Source of the DNA: Opitutaceae bacterium
GTDB lineage: Bacteria; Verrucomicrobiota; Verrucomicrobiia; Opitutales; Opitutaceae
Length of the DNA: 16,000 bases
Assembly (NCBI GenBank): GCA_044371245.1
Contig: JBILUB010000009.1
Coordinates: forward strand, 1-16,000
Direction of reading: 5' to 3'
Position numbers and translations under genes: made by a program. The notes below the pieces were generated by a model. That model was not told the DNA's origin. It saw only the letters and a program-made list of their open reading frames with translations, and made no database searches. Positions 1,477 through 15,695 of this stretch are shown piece by piece. Position 1 is the first letter of the stretch. The number at the start of each line of letters is the position of its first letter.

Positions 1477-1501
1477 GGGGGGTGGAGTTTGGGAGCAGCT
1501 T

Positions 1502-1628
1502 AATCCTTCGGGTGCGGAGGATAAATAATCCTTACGTCCAAGCCGCGGATTCACGCTTAGATTACGCTCAAAAAACGTCTTGGGATTCCGGTGAAAAAAC
1601 ACCCACGCGTTTATGGGGAATCCTTCGG
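1502..1628. repeat. Repeated motif AATCCTTCGG (exact copies at 1502-1511 and 1619-1628), a variant AATCCTTA (1527-1534), and an inverted half-site GGATTCC (1583-1589), in the lower-GC spacer upstream of the GH gene.
   Basis: Read directly from the sequence. On the minus (coding) strand the motif reads (C)CGAAGGATT. It lies 26-152 nt upstream of the GH ATG at 1476. Confidence 0.5.
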
Positions 1629-1630
1629 TA

Positions 1631-1667
1631 GGGGGGCAGGTCCGAGTGGATGCCGCCCGTTTTTTTT
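1631..1667 (+). terminator. Intrinsic-terminator-like hairpin plus T8 tract, in plus orientation only.
   Basis: GGGGGGCA (1631-1638) pairs with TGCCGCCC (1651-1658): 7 of 8 pairs, one G-G mismatch. An inner TCC/GGA extension is possible within the 12-nt loop. The stem is followed by G and eight T (1660-1667), then eight G (1668-1675). On the minus strand the hairpin is preceded by A8 and not followed by a T-run, so it should terminate only plus-strand transcripts. No plus-strand CDS lies upstream. Confidence 0.4.
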
Positions 1668-1760
1668 GGGGGGGGAATGCGCGGGCGTCGCGGGGCGCTG
1701 GTACCGAGGATGGGAGCGAGCTGCAGTCGGGTGTTTGACCGGGGGCCGCCAGCCAGCGGC

Positions 1761-3128
1761 TCAGGCGCCGGGGCCGAAGAGGGAAGCGAGGGTGCGGCCG
1801 ACGCGGTCGAGGAGGGCGGGGCGGGCTTCGTGGTACTCGCGCGGGATGAAGATCCCATCCGCGCCGGCGGAGAAGGCGGCGCGCACGATGTGCTCGGCGT
1901 GGTCCTCGGGGCAGCGGTGGTAGGCGGCGACGTCGAAGCCGAGCCCGGGATAAACCCGGGCCTTGCCGGCGACGGCGGCGACGGCGCGGCGGGTGAAGCG
2001 GGCGACGTAGTCCGCGCTGGAGGCGTGGGTGCCGGCGGCGATGGCGGCGCGGGTGGGCTCCCGGTCCGGGTCGAGGCCGCGGAGCTGGAGAAAGGCGGCG
2101 TGGGCGGTGCTGTCGTCGAGGTCCGCGAAAGGACCGTGGCTCATGAAGGGAGCGTGGTAGCCGTCGGCGCGTTTGGCGGCGCAGTCGGAGTACATCACCG
2201 GTTTTATCCAGTCGGCATGGTCGGCGAGTTCGCCGAGGTCGGTCTGGGCCATGAAGAGGGGGTCCCAAGTGCCGCCGTGGACGATGTGCCACCCGACTTT
2301 TTTGGCGGGATCGACGGCTTTCACGCGGTGGAAGACGTCGCGCAGGACGCGGTCGCGTGCCTGATACCAGAGGCGTTCCCAGGCGAGGACGGCGGGGTGG
2401 CGGGTGAGGAGGCGCCAGAAGGCGACGAAAACGCCCCCGGGCGGTTTGTCGCCGGCGCGCACGGCGGAGAAGAGCTCGTGCAGGGCAAGCATGCCGGCTC
2501 GCGCCAGCTCCGCGTCGACCTGGTTTTCGCGGGCCTGCCGGCGGCAGTGTTCGCAGAAGCACATGGGCGCCTCGCCGAGCAGAAGATAGGTGAGGGGGCC
2601 GCCACGTTCCTGGCCGAACATAAATCCGGCGACCGAGGGGTGGAGCCGCACGATGTCCTCGGCGGAAGCGGGCCACCATTCGCGCAGGTCGGGGTGATTC
2701 AGGCAGAGGAGATCGTGCGGGCGGCCGCAGGCGTCGATCTGGCGGCAGTCGCCGAGGCCGGGCAGGGCGTCGTGGTAGGTGAAGTTCTCGAGGATGCGCG
2801 GGTAGACGGCGATGCCGTGGCGGGCGGCGGGCTCGGCGACCTCGTCGAGGATGTCACCCGCGTAGCGATGGGCGGGGGGATGGCGCAGGCGGGTGCGGGC
2901 GTAGTGTCGCTCCTCGGTCCGCACCCATTGCAGCGGGCCTTTCGGGCGGGGAACGAGACCGGCGCGGAGTTGGTCGTGGTGGTCGTACTGGTAGGAGGTG
3001 TAGTTCTGCGCGAAGAGGAGAAGCGTGTTGATGCGGGCGCGCCGGCGCATGTCCGCGAGCGTGGCCTCGATGCCGTGCTCGAGGAGCGTGCCGGGGAGGA
3101 CCTGGGTGCCGATGAGGGGGGAGCGCAT
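1761..3128 (-). CDS. Cytoplasmic GH42-like / GHL6-like TIM-barrel protein with a Cys cluster; function uncertain (455 aa).
   Basis: ORF track 1761-3257. The first 43 codons are Pro-rich and overlap the upstream gene, so I moved the start to ATG 3128, 7 nt after the upstream TAG (3136-3138). Stop TGA is at 1761-1763. There is no signal peptide. LCLNHPDLREWW...VAGFMFGQERGG...MCFCEHCRRQ (CFCEHC = 2544-2561) resembles the GH42 pattern C-N-x-P..yre...NE...C-x-C-x-x-C, which includes the zinc-binding Cys cluster. Confidence 0.75.
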   Translation of the reverse strand: MRSPLIGTQVLPGTLLEHGIEATLADMRRRARINTLLLFAQNYTSYQYDHHDQLRAGLVPRPKGPLQWVRTEERHYARTRLRHPPAHRYAGDILDEVAEPAARHGIAVYPRILENFTYHDALPGLGDCRQIDACGRPHDLLCLNHPDLREWWPASAEDIVRLHPSVAGFMFGQERGGPLTYLLLGEAPMCFCEHCRRQARENQVDAELARAGMLALHELFSAVRAGDKPPGGVFVAFWRLLTRHPAVLAWERLWYQARDRVLRDVFHRVKAVDPAKKVGWHIVHGGTWDPLFMAQTDLGELADHADWIKPVMYSDCAAKRADGYHAPFMSHGPFADLDDSTAHAAFLQLRGLDPDREPTRAAIAAGTHASSADYVARFTRRAVAAVAGKARVYPGLGFDVAAYHRCPEDHAEHIVRAAFSAGADGIFIPREYHEARPALLDRVGRTLASLFGPGA

Positions 3129-3135
3129 GGGCCGG

Positions 3136-4191
3136 CTACTCGCGGGCCCAGTCGAGGCGGCGGGCGAAATCGGCCTGGAAGGCGGGGCGGTGGCGGTGAA
3201 CGGTGGCGCGGGCGGCGTCGGGATCGTGCCGGGTGGACGGATCGATCCACCAGCCATCGTCGGCGCGTTCGTAGCGGCCGCCCCAGCCGGGGCGGGAGGG
3301 ATCGGAGGGGTCGTTGCCGCCGAGCGGGAGGAAGAAAAACCACGAAGGCGTGTCGCCCTCCTTGAGGCAACCGTGGGGATTGGGCGCGGTCCAGGTCTCG
3401 GTGGGAAAGAGGGCGCCCAAGGGGCTCGAGGAGAGGATGTGTTTCTCCACCCAGGCGCGGCTGGTCAGCGACTCGTCGCCGCCGAGGTACATGCCGCGGA
3501 AGGAGGCGGTGCGTTTGTCCGCGCCCGGGGCGGCGACGCTCAAGACGTAGTGGAGTCCCGGATACGCGGCGCGCATGCGGCCGGCGATGCCGTCCTGGTC
3601 CGCGATGTCGTGCACGCGCAGTCTCGCCGCGAACGCGCCGAGCCCGTCGGCGCCGCGCTCGTGGTTCACCCGCCATAGGGCCTGGGCGAGATCGGTCTGG
3701 CCGCCCCAGACGGAGAGGTTGAGCGGGCGCTCGGGGCTGCCGGCGTCCACGCGCGCGATGATCCAGCGCGAGGCCTCGGTATCGTGCCCCTCGCCGATGA
3801 AGTCGGCGCCGCGTTCGCGGCGTCCGACCTTGATCAAGCCGAGCAGGGTGTCGGCCTCGGGCCAGCCTTCGGCGTGGCGGAGCAGGCGGGGGCGGATGAG
3901 GCGGTAGGCCTCGATCTGCTCGCGGATCAGCTCGGGCCGGGGGCTCGCATCGCGCCGCTCCCCGGGGGTGCCGGAGGAGGTGGCGAGCAGGCCTTCCCAG
4001 GCAAACTCGTTGGCGTAGTGGAGCAGGCGGACGAGGGATTGCTGGTCGTCGGGGTCGCCGCCGATGTCGGTGGTGATCATCAGCCGCGGGCGCGGGTCGT
4101 CGGAGGCCGGAGCGGCGGGCGCCGGCCCGGTGAGGGTCAGCGCGAGGAGGGAGCCGCAGAGTCCGCGGAGGAGGGCGGGGAGCGTTTTCAT
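3136..4191 (-). CDS. Secreted DUF1593 protein with a nucleoside-hydrolase-like N-terminal fold family (351 aa).
   Basis: ORF track 3136-4338. Start set at ATG 4191, giving MKTLPALLRGLCGSLLALTLTGPAPAA, a signal peptide. ATGA start/stop overlap with the upstream gene (plus-strand tcat at 4188-4191). Family hallmarks: RLMITTDIGGDPDDQQSLVRLLHYANEF, KEGDTPSWFFFL, PGWGGRYER. Confidence 0.85.
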   Translation of the reverse strand: MKTLPALLRGLCGSLLALTLTGPAPAAPASDDPRPRLMITTDIGGDPDDQQSLVRLLHYANEFAWEGLLATSSGTPGERRDASPRPELIREQIEAYRLIRPRLLRHAEGWPEADTLLGLIKVGRRERGADFIGEGHDTEASRWIIARVDAGSPERPLNLSVWGGQTDLAQALWRVNHERGADGLGAFAARLRVHDIADQDGIAGRMRAAYPGLHYVLSVAAPGADKRTASFRGMYLGGDESLTSRAWVEKHILSSSPLGALFPTETWTAPNPHGCLKEGDTPSWFFFLPLGGNDPSDPSRPGWGGRYERADDGWWIDPSTRHDPDAARATVHRHRPAFQADFARRLDWARE

Positions 4192-5111
4192 CGGAAGGGG
4201 TAGCCGGGGCCGCGCGTGATCTCGCCGCCGGTGTGGCCGACGATCGCCACGAGCAGGCCGGCGAGCAGCAGGAGCCCGAGCAGCCAGGCGCGGCTGCGGG
4301 CGTGGTCGCGCCGCATGGCGCTCACCTGCAGCCGCCACAGGACCGGGGCCAGGAGGGCGAGGGCGATGCCGAGCCAGCGGTGGAGAAACACGGTGTCGTC
4401 GGAGTGGCCGTCGGCGCTGGCGAGCAACCAGCCGGTCGCGGCGGAGAGCGGGGCGGTGAGCGCGGCGACGCCCAGGCAGGTGACGAGGGCGAAGTCGGCC
4501 TCGGCCTGGCGCCGCCGGAGGCGGGCGAGGAGGGCGAGGCCGGCGGCGACGACGAGCAGTGCCACGGGGAAATGGACGATCATCGGGTGCAGGCGCGCGA
4601 TGACGGTGCGCGTGCTTGGTCCCGGTGTGGCGGACAGATCGGTGGATCCCACCGCTGCGGGTGGGGCGGGCAGTGGGGTCGGGTCCGGGGGCGGGGCCGG
4701 GATGGCCGCGGGCTGGTCGAGGGCGAGGATCCAGCGGCGAACCAAGTCGATCTCGGCGACGCTCAGGGCGGGGGCGTCGGAGTCGGGCGGGGGCATCAGC
4801 AAGTCCTGATCCGGGGTGACGAGGACATTGAGCAACTCACTCTGGTCCGGGCGGCCGGGCACGACGTAGTTGTCGTCGGCGGCGAGACGTCGGAGGTCGA
4901 GCACGTGGCCGAAGCCGCCTTTGGGGCGTGGCCGCCGCGCGGAGTCGTGGCACTCGGCGCAGCTGCGGGCGAAGATCTCGCCGAGTGCGGGCGCGAGGGC
5001 GGTGGCCGCGTCGGGCAGATCGGCGAGCAGGGGCCGGGGCGTCGAGACTGAGAGGGCGGCGAGGCCGAGGATGACGAGCGCGGCGCGCCCGCGGGGCCGG
5101 CGAGGGCTCAT
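4188..5111 (-). CDS. Membrane protein: N-terminal planctomycete-type cytochrome c domain (PSCyt1) fused to a DUF2231 multi-helix membrane domain (307 aa).
   Basis: ORF track 4188-5111; ATG at 5111 overlaps the b562 stop (tcat 5108-5111). Signal/anchor AALVILGLAALSVS. CAECH haem c motif at 4947-4961, in a PSCyt1-like context (FARSCAECHD...VVPGRPDQSELL...MPP...LSVAEIDLVRRWI). A Pro-rich linker follows. Then about four TM helices carry the DUF2231 signature HPMIVHFPVALL, plus FLHRW and VGHTGGE. Confidence 0.85.
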   Translation of the reverse strand: MSPRRPRGRAALVILGLAALSVSTPRPLLADLPDAATALAPALGEIFARSCAECHDSARRPRPKGGFGHVLDLRRLAADDNYVVPGRPDQSELLNVLVTPDQDLLMPPPDSDAPALSVAEIDLVRRWILALDQPAAIPAPPPDPTPLPAPPAAVGSTDLSATPGPSTRTVIARLHPMIVHFPVALLVVAAGLALLARLRRRQAEADFALVTCLGVAALTAPLSAATGWLLASADGHSDDTVFLHRWLGIALALLAPVLWRLQVSAMRRDHARSRAWLLGLLLLAGLLVAIVGHTGGEITRGPGYPFR

Positions 5112-5539
5112 TCGCCCTTGAAGCGTTCGTGGCCCTCGGATTTTTGCCGCTGCATCTGGCGGGCGAGTTGTCCGGCCTGCGTCCAGTCTCCGGCCTGGAT
5201 CGCCTGTTCGAGCTCACCGATGGTTTTGAGAAACGCGTCCATCTGTTCGCGGTAGGCGGGGAGGGCGGTGGCGAGCTCGGCCTCGGGCAGCGAGGAGAGG
5301 GTCTCGGGCACGAGGTCGCGGCTGCGGGCGGCCTCGGTCTTCAAGGTGGCGAGGGCGGCGAGGGCGTCCGGGGTCTGGGTGGTGTCGGGTGCCCGCAGGA
5401 TGCGGCGCAGGGTCTTGAAGGCTTCGTCGATGCGTTCCATCGAGTCGTGGACCGAGAGGGTCTCTTCGGCTGCGATGGTCCGCGGGCTGAGGGTGAAGGT
5501 GAGGAGCAGGGCGCAGAGGCCCGTACACAGGGAGTTCAT
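5108..5539 (-). CDS. Periplasmic cytochrome b562-family four-helix-bundle protein (143 aa).
   Basis: This is the C-terminal part of track ORF 5108-6289. Start set at ATG 5539 (MNSLCTGLCALLLTFTLSPRTIAA, a signal peptide). It aligns by eye with E. coli b562: VHDSMERIDEAFKTL against LEDNMETLNDNLKVI (Met ligand), and YREQMDAFLKTIGELEQAIQAGDWTQAGQLARQMQRQKSEGHERFK against [46 protein letters not shown] (His ligand). Confidence 0.8.
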   Translation of the reverse strand: MNSLCTGLCALLLTFTLSPRTIAAEETLSVHDSMERIDEAFKTLRRILRAPDTTQTPDALAALATLKTEAARSRDLVPETLSSLPEAELATALPAYREQMDAFLKTIGELEQAIQAGDWTQAGQLARQMQRQKSEGHERFKGE

Positions 5540-5561
5540 CGGGGTGAAGGGGGAGCGGAGC

Positions 5562-5591
5562 GGGGATCGGGAGGGAAGCGGGTGGGAGGGG
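5562..5591 (+). other. G-quadruplex-type motif on the plus strand: six G3-4 tracts with 1-4 nt loops. It gives a C-rich leader on the minus strand, immediately upstream of the b562 start.
   Basis: GGGGatcGGGaGGGaagcGGGtGGGaGGGG read directly from the sequence. It is part of a longer purine-rich run (5541-5592), 23-52 nt upstream of ATG 5539. No Shine-Dalgarno-like sequence is visible. Confidence 0.4.
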
Positions 5592-5602
5592 TTTTGGCCA
5601 TG

Positions 5603-5623
5603 CTGAAGGCATCCTACCTTCAG
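5603..5623. promoter_or_regulatory. 7-bp inverted repeat or hairpin (CTGAAGG-N7-CCTTCAG) in the divergent intergenic region.
   Basis: CTGAAGG (5603-5609) and CCTTCAG (5617-5623) with a 7-nt spacer. It lies 64-84 nt upstream of the b562 ATG and 167-187 nt upstream of the 5790 ATG. It is a candidate operator or leader structure. Only the repeat itself is observed. Confidence 0.25.
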
Positions 5624-5789
5624 TGGGTGGGGCGAGGGCTTGGCTCCCGGGGGCGTCGAGCCGGGGAGGAGGGGTCGGTGGAGCATGGCGCGCTTCTTGT
5701 TCGGGGGGCGCATCTTTTGGTGATACCGGCGTAGGATGGGAGCCCGGTCGGCGGGGGAGTAGACTCGGAGACCCCCGAAAGGCCACCCC

Positions 5790-8700
5790 ATGCGCGTCCG
5801 TCGATTTCTGGTCCTTGTGATGTTTTTCCTGCCGGTCGCGTTGCCTGGCTTGGAGCCCGACCGGGCGCTGCCGCCGAAGCGCTGGGCGGAGTTGCAGGCG
5901 CGGGCTCGGGCGGTGGGGTCGGCCGGGGAGCAGGCGGCGAGGCTGCTCGCCTGTCGGGATGAGGAGGAGTTGGAGCTGGCCTTGCTGGCGCTGGGTCGGG
6001 TGTGCGCGCGGGGCAAGGGGGCGGGGGCCTCGGCGGCGGCGATCTTTGACGAGTTGCGCGCGCGGCGTGATCCGCGGGCCGACGTGATCGCGGCCGAGCT
6101 GCTGTTGCAGACGGTGGGCGTGGGCAAAGTCGGCTCCTTCGCGCCCGCGCCGCAGATCCTCGATTTCCCCGCGGAGCTGTGCGAGCGGGCGGCCGGTCTG
6201 CTCGGGGATCCCAATCCGGTGGTGCAGGCGATGGGCGAGTGGACGCTGGCCTTGCGGGTGAAAAAGCAGGGCGCGTCGGTGAAGCGCATGGACCAGCTTT
6301 TTCGCCCGCGCCCGGCGGATCTGCGTTGGCACCGGGCGTGGAGCGCGCGTCCGCCGTCGCGCCGCCTGGAGGACGACTACGCGCGCCAGCTGGTGCAGTT
6401 GAACCTGCATCGTGGCCTCGCCGGGCTGCGCAGCGCCAACGAGGCGCTGCACGAGCGTCTGCGTCGGCTGCTCGATGATCCGGGCTCGCGCCGTCCGCCG
6501 GCCGCGGCCCTCGATGGCTACGCGGAGGCGCTGGCCGAGGCGAGGCGGCGGGCCGAGGGCCCGGAGTCCGGCCTGGCGGGCGCGCACCGGGCGCATGTGG
6601 CGCTGCGGGTGGCGGGCCGGGGACTGGTCGAGGCGGCGAGGACGGAGTTTCCGACCGAAGGTTTCGTCTTTCACACCGCCCGGGCGATCCCCGGCGGCGT
6701 GTGGAATGTCAACGTGCCGGTCACGGGTGACACCAACATACCCGGGGGCGACATCTGGGTGCGGCGCTCGGCCGATCCGGCGAGCGAGGGGGTCGCGTTG
6801 CTGCGCGGTGCGCTTGGCGACGGCTCTTTGTCGGGGCTGGATCTCGACTGGGAAGGGCGCGATTTGCTCTTTTCGTTTTGGCAGCAGCCGGTCGATCCCG
6901 CCGCCAAGCCGAGGGGCTGGCGCCTGGGCAACGCGCGTCTGTACCGGCTCGCGCTCGGGGGTGGCGAGCCGCGGGGCCTGCCGGCCAAGGCCGGACACAA
7001 CGATATCGAGCCCAGTTTCCTGCCCGATGGCGGCTATGTTTTCGCCTCGGATCGCTCGGGCTTCGGCAACCAGTGCGCGGGTCCGTTTCTTCAGGACAAG
7101 CGCTGCACGACCCTTTTTCGCCTGGCGCCGGAGGCGGGGGCGGAGCCGGTCGCGATCAGCAACAACAAGGATTTCGACCGCCAGCCGCACGTGCTGAACG
7201 ACGGCACGGTCGTTTTTCTGCACTGGGAGTACCAGGAGCGGGGGCTCTACGAGACGCACGCGGTCTGGCGTTGCCGGCCGGACGGCTCGGGCATGGACGC
7301 GTTTTTCAAGCAGCATCTGTCCCGTCCGATGTCGATCCGCGACGTGGGTCCGGTGCCGGAGTCCGAGTTGTGCGTCGGCACCGCGCAGGGCCACCATGAC
7401 GGGCACAACGGGCCGGTGCTGCTCTTCGACCCGGGCCGGGGTATCAACGCCGCGGATACGATGCTGCTCGTGACCCCGGGCGTCGGGCCGATCGAGGGCG
7501 GGCTCGGACCGCTGGCCGGCCGGACGGTGCCCGAGGGGGGCGTGGCAAACCGGGGAGGATCCTACATCAACCCCTTCGCGCTCTCGGCGCGCGCCTTTCT
7601 GGTCGGGCACGACCTGACGAACACGGAGGCCGATTTCGCCGTCTACTACATCGACGTGTGGGGCAACCGGGAGCTGCTGCATCGCGATCCGGAGTACAGC
7701 TGTGTCTCGCCGCACCCCCTGCGCCCTCGGCCGCGGCCGCCGGTGGTGGCCGACGTGGCCAAGCCGGGCCAGGACCATGCGCTGGCTTTTGTGGAGAACG
7801 TATACCGGGACCTGCCGGGGGTGGAGCCGGGCGCGGTGAAGTACCTGCGGCTCTCGCAGAGTTTGCCGCTGCCCGCGCCGGTGGAGGAGTCCGACCCACG
7901 GCATCGCTTCAACCACCTGCACTGGCTGCCGGGCGACGCGACCACCTCCCATTTTTCCTACTGGAGTTGGTCGCCCTCGCGCACGATCGGGCTGGTGCGC
8001 GTGGCCGAGGACGGCAGCGCCTACTTCAAGGTGCCGGCGGGCACGCCGATCTATCTGCAGGCGCTGGACGCGCGCTATCTCGAGGTTCGGCGCATGCGGA
8101 GCAGCTTCACCCTGCAGCGCGGCGAGTTCAGGGGCTGCGCGGGTTGCCACGAGAGCCGGCCGGAGAGCGCGGGCACGGCGACCCGTTATCCGCGCGAGAC
8201 CTTTGCCGCCGGCCCGCAGACACCGGAGGCGCCGCCGTGGGGCGGGGACACCGTGCTGGACTATCGGCGGCACATCCAGCCGATCTTCGACCGGGCCTGC
8301 GGCTCCTGCCATGGAGAGCGGGCGCCGGCGGGCGGTCTCGATTTGAGCGCGCGAGAGATCGGGGGCTTCGCGCAGTCGTATCGCAGCCTCTTCGGCCTGA
8401 AGCCGGGCGATCCCACGCCGGTCCGCGCGATGGAGTACCACCTCGCGCTGCATCCCGAGGCGAAGGGTGCGCGCTATGTTTCGGACCGCGCGGCCGCGCC
8501 GATCCATCAGCGCATGCAGCAGAATCGTCAGCCGGGGCAGCTCGTCTGGATCTCAGACCGGCTGTCGGGTGCCGAAATCACGGAGCCGCGGCAGTTCGGC
8601 AGCGGGCGTTCGCCGCTCATCCTGCGGCTGCTCGACCCGCAGGATGCCACCCATCGCGATCTGCCGCGCAAGATCGGCCGGGATGGGTGGCTGGCGCTCG

Positions 8701-8930
8701 TCACCTGGATCGATCACAACGCCAACTATCACAGCACGCTGATGGACAAAACGTCCTACGCGCGGGACCGCCAGATCCGTCGGGTGCCCTATGAGTTGCC
8801 CTCGATCTGGATCCCCGGGGACCGTGCGCCGCTCTACCTGAACCGGGCGAATCTGCGGCTCGTCTCTTCGGGCGGGCCGGACCCGGAGCCTCTGCCCGAG
8901 CTCGTGCCCGAGGAGGAGACCGAGCCGTGA
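5790..8930 (+). CDS. Secreted TolB/PD40-like beta-propeller dihaem cytochrome c with an HzsA-like (hydrazine synthase alpha-like) architecture and an N-terminal helical extension (1046 aa).
   Basis: ORF track 5790-8930; ATG at 5790. Signal peptide MRVRRFLVLVMFFLPVALPG. Helical or HEAT-like N-region (LGDPNPVVQAMGEWTLAL). Propeller strings: DLDWEGRDLLFSF, NDIEPSFLPDGGYVFASDRSG, FDRQPHVLNDGTVVFLHWEY, CRPDGSGMD. Two CxxCH motifs: CAGCH (8136-8150, in FTLQRGEFRGCAGCHESR) and CGSCH (8298-8312, in the PSCyt1-like context HIQPIFDRACGSCHGERAPAGGLDLS). The antisense 1097-aa ORF 5214-8507 is a shadow frame. Confidence 0.85.
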   Translation: MRVRRFLVLVMFFLPVALPGLEPDRALPPKRWAELQARARAVGSAGEQAARLLACRDEEELELALLALGRVCARGKGAGASAAAIFDELRARRDPRADVIAAELLLQTVGVGKVGSFAPAPQILDFPAELCERAAGLLGDPNPVVQAMGEWTLALRVKKQGASVKRMDQLFRPRPADLRWHRAWSARPPSRRLEDDYARQLVQLNLHRGLAGLRSANEALHERLRRLLDDPGSRRPPAAALDGYAEALAEARRRAEGPESGLAGAHRAHVALRVAGRGLVEAARTEFPTEGFVFHTARAIPGGVWNVNVPVTGDTNIPGGDIWVRRSADPASEGVALLRGALGDGSLSGLDLDWEGRDLLFSFWQQPVDPAAKPRGWRLGNARLYRLALGGGEPRGLPAKAGHNDIEPSFLPDGGYVFASDRSGFGNQCAGPFLQDKRCTTLFRLAPEAGAEPVAISNNKDFDRQPHVLNDGTVVFLHWEYQERGLYETHAVWRCRPDGSGMDAFFKQHLSRPMSIRDVGPVPESELCVGTAQGHHDGHNGPVLLFDPGRGINAADTMLLVTPGVGPIEGGLGPLAGRTVPEGGVANRGGSYINPFALSARAFLVGHDLTNTEADFAVYYIDVWGNRELLHRDPEYSCVSPHPLRPRPRPPVVADVAKPGQDHALAFVENVYRDLPGVEPGAVKYLRLSQSLPLPAPVEESDPRHRFNHLHWLPGDATTSHFSYWSWSPSRTIGLVRVAEDGSAYFKVPAGTPIYLQALDARYLEVRRMRSSFTLQRGEFRGCAGCHESRPESAGTATRYPRETFAAGPQTPEAPPWGGDTVLDYRRHIQPIFDRACGSCHGERAPAGGLDLSAREIGGFAQSYRSLFGLKPGDPTPVRAMEYHLALHPEAKGARYVSDRAAAPIHQRMQQNRQPGQLVWISDRLSGAEITEPRQFGSGRSPLILRLLDPQDATHRDLPRKIGRDGWLALVTWIDHNANYHSTLMDKTSYARDRQIRRVPYELPSIWIPGDRAPLYLNRANLRLVSSGGPDPEPLPELVPEEETEP

Positions 8931-10705
8931 AGTCGTTCGGGTGGGCGCTCGCGTGGGTCTGTTTCGCGTCGGTGGCGGGCGTGTCCGGGGCGGGTTACGC
9001 CGACCCGACGGCACTGCTCGCGGCGCCCGGTGGCGAGCGGCTGTGGGTGGCGGCGGGCGGCAGGGATGAGATCGTGGTGGTGGAAACGGCGGCGCCCCAC
9101 GTGGACGCGCGTTGGCCCCTGCCCGGCAGTCCGACCGGTCTGGCTCTCGGTCCGGACGGAGTGTCGCTCTACGCGACCTTGGGGGCGGCGGGCCCGGGGT
9201 CGGTGGTCGAGCTCGACGCGCGCGACGGCCGGGTGCGGGGGCACTGGACGGCGGGCCATGCGCCGCTCGCGCCGGTGCTGCTGGAGGAGGGGCGTGTGCT
9301 CGCGCTCGCCCGTCGTTTCGAGGGCGTGGTCGCGCTGCATGCCCTGCCCGGAGGGCGCGAGCTGGCGACGATCCCGGTGGGGCGGGAGCCGGTGGTCTTG
9401 TTGGCCGGTGGTGATGGGCGCTCGTTGTGGGTGGTGAACCAGCTGCCCGAGCAGGCGGCGACGGACGCGCACGTGGCGGCCGCGGTGGTGCGGGTCGACC
9501 TCGCGACGGGACGGGTCGATGCCCGGGTACCCTTGCCTAACGGCTCCTCGAGCGCGCGGGGCGCGACGCTCAGCCCGGACGGGGCCCTGCTGATGGTGAC
9601 GCACGTGGTGGGTCATTATCAGTTGCCGACCAATCAGCTCGAGCGGGGCTGGATGAACGTCAACGCCCTCTCGGTGATCGACACCCGCGAGGCCCGGCGC
9701 CTGGGCACGTTGTTGCTCGATGATCCGACGCGGGGCGCGGCGAATCCCCGCGGGGTGTTGGTGACGCCGGGTGCGCAGGACCTCGTGGTGGCGCTCTCGG
9801 GCACACACGAGCTGAGCATCTTTCCCTTCCGGGCGCTGCTCGACCGGCTGGCGGCCGCCGGGGGTGATGAAGGCGCCTGGGATCATGACTTGCTCTCGAT
9901 GAGGACGGTCGGCCGGCGGCGACTGGCATTGCCGGGACGCGGGCCGCGTGAAGTGGCGTGGGCCGCGGGCCGAATCTGGGCGGCGGAGTACTTCAGCGGC
10001 ACGCTGGTCGGGTTGGAGCCGGAGGGCGAGGGGCGTGCGGAGGTGGTGCTCGAGCTGGCGCCGGAACGGATCGAGCCCGATGCGGTGCGGCGGGGGGAGG
10101 AGGCGTTTTTCGACGCGGAGCGATGTTTCCAGGCCTGGCAGAGCTGCGCCAGCTGCCATCCGGACACCCGGGTGGATGGATTGAACTGGGATCTGCTCAA
10201 CGACGGGGTGGGCAACCCCAAGCAGACGCGCAGCCTAGTGCTCTCGCCCGCGACCCCGCCGGTGATGGCGCTCGGGGTGAGAGCGCATGCCGGGGTGGCG
10301 GTGCGGGCGGGTTTTCGTTTCATCCAGTTCGCGGGAGTGGACGAGGCCGTGGCCGCGGATGTGGACGCCTACCTCGACTCGCTGCGTCCGATCTTGCCGC
10401 CGCCGGTCGATCTCGAGCTGGCTCGCCGAGGGGAGCAGATCTTCGACCGCCTGGGCTGCGGCGAGTGCCACCCGGCGCCGCACGGCACGGACGGGCAGCT
10501 GCACCCGATCCGCCATGCGACGGGGACGGACCGGGGACGGGATTTCGAGACCCCGGTGCTGCGCGAACTTTGGCGCACGGCGCCCTATCTGCACGACGGT
10601 CGCGCGGCCGGGCTGGAAGAGGCGCTGCGGATCAAATCCAAAGCGGCGAGCGAGTTGGAGGCGAGTGAGCTCGGCGCCCTGGTCGCCTACCTCCGTAGCC
10701 TCTGA
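8927..10705 (+). CDS. Secreted YVTN-type beta-propeller fused to a dihaem cytochrome c peroxidase (CCP/MauG family) domain (592 aa).
   Basis: ORF track 8927-10705. A GTG start overlaps the upstream TGA (GTGA at 8927-8930). Signal peptide MKSFGWALAWVCFASVAGVSGA. About seven propeller-blade-like repeats (LWVAAGGRDEIVVVE, PTGLALGPDGVSLYATL, ATLSPDGALLMVTH, NALSVIDTREARRL, and others). CCP hallmarks: RRGEEAFFDAERCFQAWQSCASCHPD (CASCH 10145-10159), GEQIFDRLGCGECHPAP (CGECH 10457-10471), FETPVLRELWRTAPYLHDGRAAGLEEAL. Confidence 0.9.
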   Translation: MKSFGWALAWVCFASVAGVSGAGYADPTALLAAPGGERLWVAAGGRDEIVVVETAAPHVDARWPLPGSPTGLALGPDGVSLYATLGAAGPGSVVELDARDGRVRGHWTAGHAPLAPVLLEEGRVLALARRFEGVVALHALPGGRELATIPVGREPVVLLAGGDGRSLWVVNQLPEQAATDAHVAAAVVRVDLATGRVDARVPLPNGSSSARGATLSPDGALLMVTHVVGHYQLPTNQLERGWMNVNALSVIDTREARRLGTLLLDDPTRGAANPRGVLVTPGAQDLVVALSGTHELSIFPFRALLDRLAAAGGDEGAWDHDLLSMRTVGRRRLALPGRGPREVAWAAGRIWAAEYFSGTLVGLEPEGEGRAEVVLELAPERIEPDAVRRGEEAFFDAERCFQAWQSCASCHPDTRVDGLNWDLLNDGVGNPKQTRSLVLSPATPPVMALGVRAHAGVAVRAGFRFIQFAGVDEAVAADVDAYLDSLRPILPPPVDLELARRGEQIFDRLGCGECHPAPHGTDGQLHPIRHATGTDRGRDFETPVLRELWRTAPYLHDGRAAGLEEALRIKSKAASELEASELGALVAYLRSL

Positions 10706-10836
10706 TGCACATCTTGGCGCTTGGCGAGGCGGCTTGACCTACCAAGGTAGGGATGACGCATACCCGGCCTTGCGGCAGAGTGCGTTCAGCATACCCCTCT
10801 ACCCCAGACCCCGTCACGGCCCCGGCCGTGCTCGCC

Positions 10837-13800
10837 ATGGATCGTCGTACCCCAGCCATCCTGATTAGCCTGCTCGCTCTCGCCGGAGCGCGTGAGCTTC
10901 CCGCCGCCCCGTCTCCGATCTCCCCGGAAGCGGCGCAGGCCTTTGCCCGTTATTGCTACGAGTGTCACGGACTCGACAGCGACAAGGGCGAGCTGGCGGT
11001 GCAGGAAATCCTGGAGGAGCCGGCCCGCTACGAGCTGAACCACGACAGCTTGGAAAACATCCTCGAACAGATCGAGGAAGGCCTGATGCCGCCGCGCAAA
11101 GCCGAGGCGCAGCCGGATGACGCCACGCGGGAGACGCTGGCCGAGTCGATCCGATCGATCATCCGGCAGATGGCGGAAAAACAGCACGATGATCCCGGCT
11201 TGGTGGTGATGCCGCGGCTGAATCGTGACGACTACGCGCGCGCGGCCCGCGATCTGGCGGGGGTGCGTTTCGCCCGCCCGCCCTCGTGGCCGCTGCCGGC
11301 GGAGGGTGGAGCGGGCGAGGGCTTTGGGAATGTCGGGCAGGCGCAGGGCATGAACGACGCTTTGCTGGAGAAATACCTGCACACGGCGAAGGAGTTTCTT
11401 TCGCACCTGCGGGCGGATCCGGACGGAGGTTTCGCGTGGGACGAGACGCCCCGGACCGCGGTGGAGTCGCCCGCGGATCTGCGGCGTGAGGCCGTCGCGG
11501 ATTGGGTGGTGTTTCACCAATCGGTGCTCGCGGGGCAGCCCGAGCGACTGCTGGCCGCGGCGCGCGAGAAACTGGGATACAGCCATGGCGCGTACTGGGA
11601 AGTGGCCTGGGCCTACGAGCATCGAGCCGCGTTTAACCGGGCGAACACGACCTTCGCGGAGTTGATCAAAGGCTATCCGGTGGCGCTCTCCCCCTCCTCG
11701 GCCCGTCTCTGGCATGAATTTCTCACGGGCAAGGAAGACGGCGGGGCGCACCTCAACGAAGTGCGCGCCCGTTGGAGTCGCATCCCGCCTCCCGGCCGGC
11801 AGACGCTGGAGCAGCGCCGCGCGGACATCGCGGCGATCGACGCCTGGTTTCACCAACGTGCGCGCAACGACGCCCGCTACCCGGCGGAGGCGCAGGAGGA
11901 TCGCCGGGCTCGTCGGCAGAACCAAAAGGCGGCGGACGAGCGCCTGGTCGTCCGGGCCAACGCTTCCTCGGCTCGGGAGCTCTGGCTGGTGATCAGCTCG
12001 GGGGGCGACGCGTCGACCGGCGAGCGCCTGCGCCTGAGCGGCACCGCGGTCGATCAACGCCAGCGCAGCACCGCGTGGGACGCGGCGGGCTTCGCGCTGG
12101 AGGATGCGCGCGGCCAGCGCTTGAGCCTCGGTGGAGGCGGTCCGGTCCTGCAGGCGCCCGGGGCGTGGCGCATCCGCGTGCCGGCCGGCTTCGCCACGCT
12201 CGAGCTGGCGTGCGAGTTCGAGGCCGGCGGCCCGACGGATCCCACGGTGCAACTGGCCGTGCTCGACCGGGCGCCCTTGCCGGCCGAGATCGATTTCCTC
12301 GCGGGCAAACGCGTGAGGGGGCGCCCCGGCAGCGCCTTGGTCCGGGATGCGGCCAAGGCCGACGAAGAGGTCGACCGGGCGGTTCGCTCCCGGGTGCGGC
12401 GACTGGTCAACAACGAGGTGCTCTACTTCGCGGGCTTCGACGACTTTGACGTTTCCTACCTCGGGGCCGAGGCCTGGAAAGGCGAGCCGCCGGGGAACAG
12501 CCGGGCGGTGCGCCCCTACGCGCTGCATCCGCTGGAGATGCGTGAGGACGCGATGCTGGACCCGGTTTTCGGCCCGCGCCTGCAGGCCTTGCGGCAGCGT
12601 TTGCGCTTCGTGGCGCAGATCCCCCACCAGGATCTGGCCGCGCTGCGTCGACAGGCCGGCGCCAAGGACGCGATCGAGGGTGAGCCGATACCGCCGGCCG
12701 AGCTCGATCGGCTGCCATCGGACCAACGGCGAAAGGCGATGGAGCTGACCCGACGCATCGAGGAGGCCGAGCGCGGGGCCCGGGCCGCCGCGGCCCGGGA
12801 TCTGGCCGCGTTCGTACGGCGGGCGTGGCGCCGGGATCTGAGCGCCGAGGAGAACGCGGCCTTGCTCGCCCGCTACGACGCCGCCCGGGCGGAGGGACGT
12901 CCCTACGACTCGGCGATCAAAGCGACCCTGCAAGTCGCGTTGATGTCGCCCCAGTTCCTCTACCGGCTCCAGCCGCTGCCCGAAGCGGTGCCGAGCGCGC
13001 CCTCGGTGCTGCCGCTCGATCCCTGGGCGCTGGCCTCGCGGCTCTCGTTTTTCCTCTGGAGCTCGGTGCCGGACGAGCCTCTCCTCGCGGCCGCCCGCGA
13101 AGGACGTCTGAGCGACCCCGCGGAGCTCCGCACGCAGGTCGCACGCATGTTGCAGGATGAGCGGGCGCGGGCGCTGGCGGAGCTCTTTGCCGGCCAGTGG
13201 CTCGGCTATGCGGGGTTTTCGGACCACGCGGTGCCGGATGCGGAGCTTTTTCCCGAGTTCACCCCCGCGCTGCGGGTGGCGATGGAGGAGGAGACCACAC
13301 GATTCCTCCTCGATATCGTGCAAGGCCGCGCGCCGGTGCTCGATCTGATCGCGGCGGACTACACCTACCTCAACGAGGACCTCGCGCGTCATTACGGCGT
13401 GCCAGGAGTCGAGGGCCCGGAGCTGCGCCGCGTGCAAGTCGATCCCGCGCGGCGTGGAGGCATCCTCGCCCAAGGCAGCGTGTTGACGAAAACCTCGACC
13501 GCGCTGCGCACCAGCCCGGTGCTGCGCGGCGTGTGGTTGATCGAGCGCATCCTCGGCCAGGAGATCCCGACGCCGCCACCGGTGCCGGCCTTGTCCGACG
13601 GGGAGACCAGCCCGGAGGGCCTGACCCTGATCAAGCAACTCGAGGCCCATCGCGCCGACCCCTCCTGCGCGAGTTGTCACAACCGGATCGATCCCCCGGG
13701 CCTGAGCCTGGAAAATTTCGACGCGGTCGGGCGCTGGCGAGACAGCTACTCGGGCGGACTCGCGGTCGATGCCGCCGGACGACTGCCGAATGGCACGCGG

Positions 13801-14124
13801 GTCGAGGGCTTGAAGGGGCTCCGCTCGCTGCTGCTGACCCAGCGCGAGACCGTCCTGCGCACCTTCGCCACGAAGCTAATCGGCTATGCCCTCGGGCGCG
13901 CCTACCAACCGGGTGACGACGCGCTGCGCGCCCGCGTGATGCAGGCCCTCGCCGACCCGCGGGCGGGCTTCCCGGCCGCCACTCTCGAGATCGTCACCAG
14001 CCGCCAGTTTACCCATCGCCGCGCGGAGCCCGCCGCTCCGCTTTTCGCCGCGCCGACGCCGGCGCCGGCCAGCCCCGCCCTCGCCCAACACCCCTCCGGA
14101 CCCGCCGCCGGACCCCGACCATGA
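10837..14124 (+). CDS. DUF1592-family protein (DUF1587/1595/1592/1588/1585 = PSD3/PSD5/PSD4/PSCyt3/PSD2 modules) with two CxxCH motifs (1095 aa).
   Basis: ORF track 10753-14124. Start preferred at ATG 10837 (MDRRTPAILISLLALAGARELPA, a signal peptide). CYECH at 10954-10968. PRLNRDDYARAARDLAGV is DUF1587-like. FVRRAWRRDLSAEE...ATLQVALMSPQFLYR is DUF1595-like. LASRLSFFLWSSVPDEPLL is DUF1592-like. DYTYLNEDLARHYG...LRTSPVLRGVWLIERILG is DUF1588-like. CASCH at 13666-13680 (RADPSCASCHNRIDPPG). FATKLIGYALGR is DUF1585-like. Confidence 0.9.
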   Translation: MDRRTPAILISLLALAGARELPAAPSPISPEAAQAFARYCYECHGLDSDKGELAVQEILEEPARYELNHDSLENILEQIEEGLMPPRKAEAQPDDATRETLAESIRSIIRQMAEKQHDDPGLVVMPRLNRDDYARAARDLAGVRFARPPSWPLPAEGGAGEGFGNVGQAQGMNDALLEKYLHTAKEFLSHLRADPDGGFAWDETPRTAVESPADLRREAVADWVVFHQSVLAGQPERLLAAAREKLGYSHGAYWEVAWAYEHRAAFNRANTTFAELIKGYPVALSPSSARLWHEFLTGKEDGGAHLNEVRARWSRIPPPGRQTLEQRRADIAAIDAWFHQRARNDARYPAEAQEDRRARRQNQKAADERLVVRANASSARELWLVISSGGDASTGERLRLSGTAVDQRQRSTAWDAAGFALEDARGQRLSLGGGGPVLQAPGAWRIRVPAGFATLELACEFEAGGPTDPTVQLAVLDRAPLPAEIDFLAGKRVRGRPGSALVRDAAKADEEVDRAVRSRVRRLVNNEVLYFAGFDDFDVSYLGAEAWKGEPPGNSRAVRPYALHPLEMREDAMLDPVFGPRLQALRQRLRFVAQIPHQDLAALRRQAGAKDAIEGEPIPPAELDRLPSDQRRKAMELTRRIEEAERGARAAAARDLAAFVRRAWRRDLSAEENAALLARYDAARAEGRPYDSAIKATLQVALMSPQFLYRLQPLPEAVPSAPSVLPLDPWALASRLSFFLWSSVPDEPLLAAAREGRLSDPAELRTQVARMLQDERARALAELFAGQWLGYAGFSDHAVPDAELFPEFTPALRVAMEEETTRFLLDIVQGRAPVLDLIAADYTYLNEDLARHYGVPGVEGPELRRVQVDPARRGGILAQGSVLTKTSTALRTSPVLRGVWLIERILGQEIPTPPPVPALSDGETSPEGLTLIKQLEAHRADPSCASCHNRIDPPGLSLENFDAVGRWRDSYSGGLAVDAAGRLPNGTRVEGLKGLRSLLLTQRETVLRTFATKLIGYALGRAYQPGDDALRARVMQALADPRAGFPAATLEIVTSRQFTHRRAEPAAPLFAAPTPAPASPALAQHPSGPAAGPRP

Positions 14125-15476
14125 ATCCACAAATCACCACCGACACCTACCTACCCCGACTCTCCCGACGCTCGATGCTAAAAGGGCTGGGCGCGGCGGT
14201 CACGCTGCCCTGGCTGCGCAGCCTGGCCTGGGCGGACGGCGGGGAAAAAGCCGTGACGGCGAGCGCGCCTCCCCGGCGCTGGGCGACGCTGCTCTTCGCC
14301 AACGGAGTAAAGATCGACGACTGGTGGGCCCGCGACCAAGGCGGTGGCCGCATCGAGCTCTCGCGGACCCTCGCACCGTTGGCACCGCACACGAAGGATC
14401 TGATTTTCCTGAACGGCATGCGGCTGTTTGACAACGTGTCTGGCGTGCACTGGCCCTACTTCACCAACTTTCTGGCCGGCGAGAAAGTGAAGACCGGCTC
14501 GATGCCCGACGTCGCGGAGTCGCTTGATCAATACATGGCGCGCACGATCGGCGCGAACACCGCCGTGCCGGTGCTGAACCTCGCGGTCGAGCCGGTGCAG
14601 CACGGGGTGCGGAGCGGCGTGCCCTCGGTCTACTTCGGCACCATCTCGTGGAGTTCGGAGACGACGCCGGTGGCGCCCGAGATCTACCCGCAGCAGGCTT
14701 TTGACCGGCTCTTCGACACCCGGGGACTGCGACGTGACCGGAGCGTGCTCGATGGAGTGCTCGATCAGGCCAAGGGAGTGGGCCGGCGCCTCGATCGTCA
14801 CGATCAGGAGAAGCTCGACGGGTTCATGGACTCGGTGCGCTCGGTCGAGCGGCGCCTGGAGCGTGCGGCCGAGGATGCGCGGGAGGGAGGCTCCTGGCAT
14901 GCCGGTTTCGCCAAGCCGAGTCTGGTGAGGCCGGAGGCGGGCCTGCCCGCGACGGTGCATGAGCACATGCGCCTGATGATCGACATCCAGGTGCTGGCCT
15001 TCCAGATGGACAAGACGCGGATCAGCACGCTGCTCTTCAACAACGACGGCACCTACGACATGAAGTTCAACTTCCTCGAGGGGGTGAGCGGCAACTCGAT
15101 GCACGTGATCTCGCATCACAACAACGTCGCCAAGGTTCTCTCGGACTATCAGCGCATAAACCAGTTTCACGTGGAGCTCTTCGCCTACTACCTCGAAAAG
15201 ATGAAGTCGGTGGACGAGGGCAACGGCTCCCTGCTCGACAACTCGATGGTGCTCTTCGGCTCGACCATGATGGACGGGTTTAAGCACGACGGTTCTCGGC
15301 TGCCGCTGGTGCTCGCGGGCCGCGGCGGCGGCACGATCCAGCCGGGCCGGGTGCTGGATTTTGAGCGCACCGAGGAGCGCCGCCTGTGCAACCTGCACCT
15401 CGCGTTGCTGCAACGCATGGGCGTACCCACGACCACCTTTGGCAACAGCCACCACGCGACCAAGGGGCTCTCCTAG
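14121..15476 (+). CDS. DUF1552 protein with a twin-arginine (Tat) signal; the usual partner of DUF1592 proteins (451 aa).
   Basis: ORF track 14121-15476. ATGA overlap with the upstream stop (14121-14124). Tat-like N-terminus LSRRSMLKGLGAAVTLPWL. Family-typical strings: LFANGV, FLNGMR, SLDQY, MHVISHHNN, LFGSTMMDG.KHD. Stop TAG at 15474-15476. Confidence 0.9.
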   Translation: MNPQITTDTYLPRLSRRSMLKGLGAAVTLPWLRSLAWADGGEKAVTASAPPRRWATLLFANGVKIDDWWARDQGGGRIELSRTLAPLAPHTKDLIFLNGMRLFDNVSGVHWPYFTNFLAGEKVKTGSMPDVAESLDQYMARTIGANTAVPVLNLAVEPVQHGVRSGVPSVYFGTISWSSETTPVAPEIYPQQAFDRLFDTRGLRRDRSVLDGVLDQAKGVGRRLDRHDQEKLDGFMDSVRSVERRLERAAEDAREGGSWHAGFAKPSLVRPEAGLPATVHEHMRLMIDIQVLAFQMDKTRISTLLFNNDGTYDMKFNFLEGVSGNSMHVISHHNNVAKVLSDYQRINQFHVELFAYYLEKMKSVDEGNGSLLDNSMVLFGSTMMDGFKHDGSRLPLVLAGRGGGTIQPGRVLDFERTEERRLCNLHLALLQRMGVPTTTFGNSHHATKGLS

Positions 15477-15657: not shown

Positions 15658-15695
15658 AGATAAGGCGGGGCGACGCCGCGCCGCGGGGCCCGTGC

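Follow-up and report, generated by a model that had tools for sequence, protein, structure and literature searches.

Background

Hydrazine synthase (HZS), the three-subunit enzyme of anammox bacteria, was long regarded as having no relatives. Here we analyse two adjacent genes whose products are related to all three of its subunits, found in a stretch of 16,000 nucleotides from an Opitutaceae bacterium of the Verrucomicrobiota (GenBank assembly GCA_044371245.1, contig JBILUB010000009.1, positions 1 to 16,000, forward strand), which is called the window below. Genes of this kind have been described twice. In Planctomycetota and KSB1, Dalcin Martins et al. (2023) found 'hzs-like' genes, in some cases as an hzsA-like gene upstream of a fused hzsBC-like one, and suggested that HZS-like enzymes make up a broader family whose members use other substrates (PMC10732223). 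Hägglund et al. (2025) described bacteria outside the anammox group in which alpha-like genes are co-localised with fused beta-gamma-like ones; they arranged the pairs in clades I-IV, with similar predicted structures and the same loss of key residues as in the pair studied here; in the published clades I and II an FG-GAP gene is placed between alpha and beta-gamma (PMC12758564). A beta-gamma fusion in some anammox lineages, which an earlier annotation made from the letters of the window alone (the sequence-only reading) had mentioned, is real according to an NCBIfam model and both papers (PMC10732223, PMC12758564). The pair in the window is a further member of this family published in 2023-2025, and the idea behind it is no longer new; the main value of the present analysis lies in what it adds, namely an asymmetric partnership of the two genes, their natural fusions in relatives, and a carbohydrate-linked context.

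On the whole, we consider it probable that the pair encodes a periplasmic complex with four c-type haems, a full-length homologue and paralogue of HZS, which may perform redox work on a glycan-derived or other organic substrate in a heterotroph. With the published HZS-like pairs it shares the co-localisation of an alpha-like gene (gene 1) and a fused beta-gamma-like gene (gene 2) in one operon with alpha upstream, as well as the lack of conservation of key HZS residues and the type of host, that is, Planctomycetota and other bacteria of the Planctomycetes-Verrucomicrobia-Chlamydiae (PVC) group. Unlike clades I-III, the window pair is accompanied neither by an FG-GAP/CRTAC1 gene (no FG-GAP Pfam match is found in the window) nor by ABC substrate-binding genes. 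Gene 2 has two CxxCH motifs, whereas the beta-gamma proteins of clade I have 6-10 and those of clade III have 3; gene 1 keeps both haem motifs, unlike the alpha proteins in clades II and III; moreover, gene 2 has no Trp at the gammaHis144 site, where clades I-III have one. Judged from the sequences, the window pair resembles clade IV by exclusion only.

The gene pair and its coding evidence

The two genes and their junction are as follows.

5790..8930, + strand: gene 1, HZS-alpha-like dihaem protein of 1046 amino acids (aa); open reading frame (ORF) with ATG start, Pfam PF18582, top structural match 5c2v_A
8927..10705, + strand: gene 2, fused HZS-beta-gamma-like protein of 592 aa; ORF with GTG start, matches in NCBIfam, PDB and Foldseek searches
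8927..8930, + strand: GTGA, the 4-bp overlap of the gene 1 stop and the gene 2 start

The positions of the two ORFs, the GTGA overlap and the four CxxCH positions had been given in the sequence-only reading and are all exact. The window has a G+C content of 70%, and the coding strand was chosen by a filter on the G+C content of third codon positions (GC3), not by the longest ORF; GC3 is 0.86-0.87 in both + strand ORFs, indicating coding frames. Independent gene calls on three near-identical public contigs (L003-L005, where L numbers denote the loci compared in this study) give both genes and the 4-bp overlap, and the identical overlap is present in L007. An antisense ORF at 5214-8507 on the - strand, longer than gene 1, was rejected as a high-GC shadow. 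There are three such antisense ORFs (5214-8507, 8834-10159 and 10786-13680, all on the - strand) of up to 1097 aa, and all are taken as shadows arising from the 70% G+C content because the G+C content of first codon positions exceeds GC3 in each.

Both proteins have signal-peptide-like N-termini, MRVRRFLVLVMFFLPVALPG for gene 1 and VKSFGWALAWVCFASVAGVSGAGYA for gene 2, which on inspection by eye fit the signal peptides proposed for them before. Each protein carries two CxxCH motifs and none beyond these, and all four are invariant, in 38 of 38 homologues of gene 1 and in 50 of 50 homologues of gene 2, so they are not chance occurrences. A scan for terminators and promoters between the four + strand genes reveals nothing above chance. 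The pair encodes proteins with four haem c sites that appear to be exported and translationally coupled.

The alpha-like protein

In gene 1 we distinguish the features below, numbered on the window.

5874..6638, + strand: N-terminal all-helical domain, aa 29-283; DSSP on the AlphaFold2 model gives helices only, with a predicted local distance difference test (pLDDT) of about 90-97
6663..7793, + strand: beta-propeller, aa 292-668, of about six blades according to the model strands
7899..8153, + strand: HZS_alpha middle domain, aa 704-788, beta-rich and ending in haem motif 1; Pfam match, aligned to 5c2v_A 453-561
8136..8150, + strand: CAGCH, equivalent of haem alpha-I, followed by ESRPE without Tyr
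8298..8312, + strand: CGSCH, equivalent of haem alpha-II, in the C-domain; aligned to 5c2v_A 641-693, invariant in the family

The single Pfam domain of gene 1 is HZS_alpha (PF18582), found at 66.5 bits with a cutoff of 26.6, so the affinity to the middle/haem domain of HzsA on which the sequence-only reading depended is a significant match. Among PDB sequences the only significant match is HzsA of Kuenenia stuttgartiensis (5c2v_A), at E = 3.7e-7 with the single sequence and 2e-15 with the family profile, and the alignment covers both haem regions of gene 1. The AlphaFold2 model (pLDDT 84, predicted template modelling score (pTM) 0.87) leads to the same protein: Foldseek retrieves 5c2v_A at E = 1.3e-21 over 867 columns with 14% identity, and the next fold, an S9 peptidase propeller, follows at 6.9e-7, i.e. 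15 orders worse.

The TolB/PD40-like propeller that had been assigned to gene 1 stands as a propeller, with about six blades in the model, while its TolB character is faint, the family profile touching TolB/PD40 at E = 4e-4. Its invariant residues are C429, W479, Y481, Q482, E483, R484, H509 and H535; besides the invariant C429, the alpha family has conserved H884, M909 and H955. In HZS, alphaCys303 is a Zn ligand and alphaHis772 the distal ligand of haem alpha-II. The helical N-domain of 255 aa, for which the Pfam scan gives no match, is a feature of gene 1 that is absent in HzsA, and the alignments of alpha-like proteins at a greater distance start no earlier than profile position 275-346 or so.

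The beta-gamma-like protein

Gene 2 is divided into a propeller and a dihaem part.

9005..10054, + strand: seven-bladed HzsB-like propeller, aa 27-376; 28 strands, profile against 5c2v_B 8-349 at E = 3.4e-43
9620..9652, + strand: loop QLPTNQLERGW, aa 232-242, aligned to the tunnel loop of HzsB; Kuenenia counterpart PVCEAENGQ
10082..10702, + strand: dihaem domain like that of cytochrome c peroxidase (CCP), MauG and HzsC, aa 386-592; profile against 5c2v_C 39-313 at E = 3e-34
10145..10159, + strand: CASCH, equivalent of haem gamma-I, aligned to Kuenenia SCASCH
10457..10471, + strand: CGECH, equivalent of haem gamma-II, aligned to Kuenenia CLECH

The three best NCBIfam models for gene 2 are hydrazine_BC, hydrazine_beta and hydrazine_gamma, with the model of the beta-gamma fusion ranking first. 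Its AlphaFold2 model (pLDDT 84, pTM 0.87) consists of a propeller followed by a helical dihaem domain, and the 28 strands make seven blades, in agreement with the number of about seven estimated from the sequence before. The top Foldseek match is 5c2v_B (E = 1.9e-23, template modelling score 0.86, root-mean-square deviation 3.0 Å, 21% identity). Within the propeller, the equivalent of the loop by which the HZS tunnel is gated has been kept, and its stretch PTNQLERGW is the most conserved of the whole gene 2 family, with P234, Q237, R240, G241 and W242 invariant, and residues 232-241 have a pLDDT below 50 in the monomer model.

The C-terminal 200 aa have in common with CCP and MauG a PYLHDG motif and a pair of CxxCH motifs separated by about 100 residues, and give weak sequence matches to 3o5c, 1iqc and 1nml. 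They differ from these enzymes in being fused to a propeller, in missing the CCP/MauG inter-haem Trp in the alignments, in having an invariant extra Cys, and in being much closer to HzsC: the gene 2 family profile reaches its best cytochrome c peroxidase at 1.5e-11, compared with 3e-34 for HzsC. HzsB and HzsC thus come out ahead of ordinary peroxidases, as the sequence-only reading had expected of a structure search. The Pfam model CCP_MauG (PF03150) gives gene 2 exactly its cutoff, 25.6 bits, and no single stretch passes alone. The extra Cys is Cys400 (10124-10126), placed 7 residues before CASCH (CFQxWQSCASCH) and the sole Cys outside the haem motifs in mature gene 2. At His556 of PYLHDG (10592-10594), His is found in 66% of the beta-gamma members and Tyr in 30%, a split that recalls the bis-His haem gamma-II of HZS versus the His-Tyr haem of MauG.

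Comparison with anammox hydrazine synthase

Fold and profile matches establish homology to all three HZS subunits (5c2v_A, 5c2v_B and 5c2v_C), and the inventory of alpha plus fused beta-gamma proposed for the pair is right at the level of homology. Compared with the Kuenenia stuttgartiensis enzyme (5C2V), the window pair has the same three modules and the same fold, and in both cases the genes are adjacent and the products exported. The alpha part has in both a six-bladed propeller as well as a middle domain and a C-domain that each carry a CxxCH; the beta part is in both a seven-bladed propeller with a conserved inserted loop; the gamma part is in both a CCP/MauG-like dihaem domain, and its fusion to beta in gene 2 is as in HzsBC of the Scalindua type. 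However, the structural identity to the HZS subunits is only 14-21%, the gene order here is alpha before beta-gamma while in anammox bacteria beta-gamma is upstream of alpha, and the window is without partners such as hydrazine dehydrogenase (HDH) or hydroxylamine oxidoreductase (HAO), its context being heterotrophic and rich in carbohydrate-active enzymes (CAZymes), unlike that of anammox HZS. The absence of an octahaem HAO/HDH-like gene had been pointed out before and holds for the entire 16 kb, since no ORF of the window has more than two CxxCH motifs.

The scores of the equivalog models are far from their cutoffs, those for alpha and beta-gamma falling short more than tenfold. Gene 1 obtains 47 bits with the HZS alpha model NF052339 (cutoff 800), and gene 2 obtains 80.6, 58.8 and 45.5 bits with the beta-gamma, beta and gamma models (cutoffs 1250, 560 and 625, respectively). 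The residues tell the same. In HZS, the proximal ligand of haem alpha-I is Tyr591, four residues past the His of the motif (CSGCHxGSY), and His587 binds Zn. A search of the protein collection with a 108-residue query from Kuenenia HzsA yields only two short fragments (P0193 and P0194), and in the anammox HzsA fragment P0194, CSGCHDGSYRGR, Tyr591 is seen four residues past the motif His. At the same site gene 1 reads CAGCHESRPESAG (CAGCHESRPE), without Tyr, and the family consensus is CxGCHESRxE, so haem 1 of gene 1 is expected to be canonically His-ligated. The literature concurs that non-anammox homologues are without the alpha-I Tyr (PMC12758564).

For the gamma part, the positions were located in the alignments from the Kuenenia sequence by way of CxxCH numbering. 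GammaCys165, which makes the third covalent bond to haem gamma-I, aligns to Ala469 or Gly462 of gene 2 depending on the alignment, and the counterpart of gammaHis144, which is located between the gamma haems, is Ala448 or Leu449 within the conserved stretch TPPxMxLGVR. GammaAsp168 of the distal pocket aligns to Asp472 in one alignment and to Phe465 in the other. In the tunnel loop, the presumed betaGlu253 of the Mg site aligns to the invariant Gln237, with Glu239 two positions on, the offset of the chain numbering being itself inferred. Because the residues special to HZS are missing, the pair is an HZS paralogue and not a hydrazine synthase, which agrees with the non-anammox paralogue suggested in the sequence-only reading and with the literature (PMC12758564, PMC10732223). 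Of the refuting conditions named in that reading, all those put to the test came out in favour of it.

Distribution and partnership of the two genes

When clusters at 50% identity are counted by their representatives, gene 1 has 3441 relatives, of which 842 reach E <= 1e-30; among GTDB species representatives they occupy 455 loci. The alpha-like loci are distributed over Verrucomicrobiota, Planctomycetota, Sumerlaeota, KSB1, Bacteroidota and Victivallales, and a genome often has several of them; the heterotrophs in which the family is multicopy include rumen Thermoguttaceae and Bacteroidota. Among cultured bacteria, Anaerobaca lacustris, Thermogutta terrifontis, Aquisphaera giovannonii and Opitutus terrae are carriers. 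Relatives of gene 2, of about 610 aa, number more than 854 and are annotated as YVTN/YncE, 'cell surface protein' or 'c-type cytochrome'. Its closest relatives are in L006 (72% identity) and in L007 (50%, with the same 4-bp overlap).

The partnership of the two families is unequal. We counted 28 metagenome loci that are centred on a beta-gamma gene and have flanks of 3.5 kb or more on either side. In 19 of them an alpha-like gene is no farther than 1.5 kb away, and 16 of the 19 have it upstream and on the same strand. Conversely, of 50 alpha-centred loci with adequate flanks, beta-gamma is present in 10 and absent in 40, and tandem alpha copies are seen in 8; another CxxCH protein within two genes is found in only 4 of 66 alpha-only loci. 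Beta-gamma depends evolutionarily on alpha. The pair is kept with alpha upstream in L006, L007, L009, L012, L019, L022 and L024, so that adjacency is observed in the closest relatives as well as in the 19 loci mentioned. Moreover, alpha, beta and gamma are joined in a single ORF at L098 5181-9722 (1513 aa) and at L129 1339-5760; both ORFs contain four CxxCH motifs but lack a signal peptide in their interior. These natural fusions are the best available evidence for a physical complex, and together with the 4-bp overlap and the conserved gene order they support the earlier suggestion that the two products probably form one.

Tandem alpha arrays of 2-4 copies without beta-gamma occur in L040, L044, L048 and L078, and also in L045, L051, L055, L059 and L068. 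Single metagenome-assembled genomes (MAGs), CAZNGS01 and CAYLPJ01 being examples, carry at least 5 alpha-like copies spread over different contigs. CAZNGS01 is titled 'uncultured candidatus Brocadiaceae bacterium', and its copies (L011, L018, L048, L057 and L073) are at least 5 alpha-like paralogues of non-anammox type.

Neighbouring genes and glycan-linked context

The neighbours of the pair in the window are listed here.

10753..14124, + strand: PSD/PSCyt3 protein (DUF1592/1588/1595/1585/1587) with two CxxCH motifs; Pfam, 47 bp after gene 2
14121..15476, + strand: DUF1552 (HXXSHH) protein with a N-terminus like those of twin-arginine translocation (Tat) substrates, SRRSMLK; Pfam 237 bits, 4-bp overlap with the previous gene
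5108..5539, - strand: cytochrome b562-like protein, whose gene opens the divergent operon; PF07361 at 47.4 bits, gene call in L003
4188..5111, - strand: PSCyt1 cytochrome c fused to a DUF2231 membrane domain, with one CAECH; Pfam
1761..3128, - strand: relative of a glycoside hydrolase (GH)-like TIM-barrel family, 'fam500', 455 aa, no Pfam assignment; family hidden Markov model (HMM) 412 bits

Of the neighbours named in the sequence-only reading, the DUF1592 and DUF1552 genes are present and a GH-like relative is found at 1761-3128, while the sulfatase is not, no Pfam match to a sulfatase being obtained anywhere in the window. The divergent upstream operon comprises in order the b562 gene, the PSCyt1-DUF2231 gene and a gene for a Sde182 nucleoside-hydrolase-like protein (3136-5539, - strand), followed by that of the 455-aa GH-like protein. 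In total, the locus has 7 CxxCH motifs plus the b562. In L012, an Opitutales MAG, the pair is likewise preceded by genes for b562 and PSCyt1-DUF2231 (655-2400), and L007 encodes DUF2231-PSCyt1 in one protein with the DUF1592 part.

A pair of DUF1592-type and DUF1552 genes is located beside alpha-like genes, before or after them, in L007, L010 and L041. We rejected this association as significant, since no more than 4 related loci show it and PVC genomes contain pairs of this type in abundance; it is regarded as lineage-restricted. The planctomycete-specific cytochrome (PSCyt/PSD) proteins of previous work, which have DUF1552/DUF1501 partners, are, as here, cytochromes of the c type that PVC bacteria export; they are often fused to the same types of carbohydrate-binding modules (CBMs), i.e. 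Laminin_G_3, NPCBM and Bac_rhamnosid_N, and adjoin sulfatases and GHs (PMC5615132). He et al. (2017) noted that the PSCyt cytochromes of Verrucomicrobia follow a CBM-type fusion logic too (PMC5615132). One such PSCyt/PSD-DUF1552 pair is in the same operon as the window pair, but the folds and domains are unrelated and the link is one of context only. The association of HZS-like genes with DUF1592/DUF1552, b562, PSCyt1-DUF2231 or the GH-like family is not mentioned in either of the two papers on HZS-like genes (PMC10732223, PMC12758564).

A Pfam census of 62 immediate same-strand neighbours of alpha-like genes reveals no recurrent family; all-against-all clustering of neighbours finds the GH-like family, a family resembling leucine-rich repeat (LRR) proteins, and sulfatases. 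By clustering and HMM, the GH-like family is beside alpha-like genes in 18 of 80 alpha-centred loci. Its members, of about 500 aa, have the invariants C142, C190-x-C192-xx-C195, E174 and E434, and relatives show weak GHL10/GHL6 matches and Tat signals; the family profile gives nothing significant against the PDB. The 1761-3128 protein looks, from these motifs, like a GH-like TIM barrel with a Cys cluster, which may be a Zn-Cys cluster of the GH42 kind.

The alpha-like proteins themselves have a carbohydrate-linked context in related loci. Lectin or CBM modules (Laminin_G_3, F5/8C, NPCBM and CBM9) are present on about half of 39 long alpha-like representatives. Two loci of Bacteroidota place the pair in glycan-utilisation surroundings. 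One, an operon (L039, 2399-20391), has in order an extracytoplasmic function (ECF) sigma factor, FecR, SusC, SusD, alpha, alpha, beta-gamma, a 299-aa protein and a member of the GH-like family; in the other (L037, 6-22291) the pair is accompanied by a sulfatase, SMP-30 lactonase, aldo-keto reductase, DUF4380, GH28, an esterase and a GH43-like protein. In the cultured planctomycete Anaerobaca lacustris (L168, GCA_030012215.1, 1-12813) four alpha-like paralogues surround one beta-gamma gene, one of them fused as NPCBM + HZS_alpha + FGE-sulfatase and one as F5/8C + HZS_alpha. Neither the window nor those related loci that were inspected contain a nitrogen-cycle gene.

Two further families are seen beside these genes. 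An LRR-like protein of about 317 aa is next to the pair in L007 (7421-8461), L020 (12925-13878), L010, L019 and L077; in L020 its gene is placed between alpha and beta-gamma, which recalls the FG-GAP gene of clades I-II. A protein of about 350 aa combining FkbO/Hyg5-like and RidA (L-PSP) parts is beside alpha-like genes in four unrelated loci: L002 (8949-10004), L012 (2392-3453), L039 (20409-21533) and L084 (19645-20883).

Proposed function and alternative explanations

Based on the above, we propose the following model. Genes 1 and 2 would be translated in a coupled manner and their products would assemble like HZS. The invariant beta loop PTNQLERGW, disordered in the monomer model, may sit at the alpha/gamma interface; low pLDDT in the best conserved loop counts in favour of a complex. 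Alpha would be the core, an autonomous catalytic unit binding its substrate in a cavity between the propeller and the canonically His-ligated haem; its autonomy is suggested because 40 of the 50 alpha-centred loci have no beta-gamma and only 4 of 66 have another CxxCH protein. Beta-gamma would be an added dihaem module that delivers or withdraws electrons or else provides a reactive intermediate of small size, and its gamma-type domain may take or give electrons or activate a small oxidant. The b562, PSCyt1-DUF2231 and PSD/PSCyt3 cytochromes may exchange electrons between the complex and the membrane. Weakest in the model is the inference on physiology, according to which an organic substrate in the periplasm, perhaps derived from glycans, undergoes redox processing and the complex does not serve nitrogen-cycle energy metabolism.

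That the pair is a genuine though divergent hydrazine synthase of a cryptic anammox-type organism has next to no probability: the full-length fold and the alpha plus fused beta-gamma inventory, as in Scalindua, are what such an enzyme would have, but the NCBIfam scores (47 of 800 and 80.6 of 1250 bits), the identities of 14% to HzsA and 21% to HzsB, the absence of alphaTyr591, gammaCys165 and gammaHis144 and of any HAO/HDH multihaem gene in the window, and the multicopy occurrence of the family in heterotrophs all speak against it, as does the literature (PMC12758564, PMC10732223). It is also quite unlikely that the genes are independent, gene 2 encoding a propeller-peroxidase that works alone in H2O2 detoxification and gene 1 an unrelated neighbouring cytochrome. 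Such independence would fit the relation of the dihaem domain to CCP/MauG, the 80% of alpha-centred loci without beta-gamma and the about 30% of beta-gamma loci without an alpha-like gene within 1.5 kb; it is difficult to reconcile with the 4-bp overlap, the order of alpha then beta-gamma in 16 of 19 paired loci, the two natural fusions, the closest similarity of both proteins to subunits of one known complex, and the missing inter-haem Trp of CCP/MauG.

Somewhat less improbable, though still doubtful, is small-molecule redox chemistry as proposed in the sequence-only reading, taken here to act on N or O molecules (NO, hydroxylamine, N-oxide or peroxide) in detoxification or respiration without a glycan link. 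The pair shares its stock with an enzyme acting on NO and hydroxylamine, the region of the gammaI-type CASCH pocket is the best conserved part of gene 2, the 7 CxxCH motifs and the b562 make the locus rich in electron carriers, and Dalcin Martins et al. proposed alternative substrates (PMC10732223). Against this stand the lack of nitrogen-cycle genes in the window and the inspected loci, the frequent fusion of the alpha-like superfamily to lectin/CBM modules and its presence in SusC/D and CAZyme loci, and the apparent lack of conservation of the HZS pocket residues. The genomic context points at least as much to glycan-linked chemistry as to N-oxide, hydroxylamine or peroxide chemistry. Several observations weigh against our own proposal of a glycan-linked redox complex. 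The neighbours of alpha-like genes are heterogeneous overall, gene 1 of the window carries no CBM, and lectin-like modules can bind non-sugar ligands; PVC genomes are so dense in CAZymes and sulfatases that much of the context may be incidental. The synteny is one-sided, with beta-gamma in only 10 of 50 alpha-centred loci. An invariant M769 and other conserved His and Met residues could make the alpha haems plain six-coordinate electron carriers, and the ambiguous alignment of gammaAsp168 and betaGlu253 leaves room for HZS-like small-nitrogen chemistry at the gamma haem.

Implications

For the window alone, the analysis gives a proper annotation to two proteins that would otherwise be 'hypothetical' or 'YncE-like'. 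For the family, the CBM fusions, the SusC/D and CAZyme loci, the GH-like partner, the natural fusions and the cultured Anaerobaca lacustris provide hypotheses to work with. A bolder and rather doubtful extension is that alpha-like proteins, with beta-gamma as an optional part, form a large unrecognised class of haem redox enzymes acting on glycans or molecules derived from them in the periplasm of PVC bacteria and Bacteroidota, a new type of 'auxiliary activity', from which stock anammox HZS was recruited. If this is true, the window would contain one complete system, made up of alpha, beta-gamma, the PSD-cytochrome, DUF1552, b562, PSCyt1-DUF2231 and the GH-like TIM barrel. The origin of HZS is a question for the history of the nitrogen cycle, and pairs such as this one show the scaffold behind it, a widespread one composed of two haem sites plus a propeller whose conserved loop probably lies at an interface.

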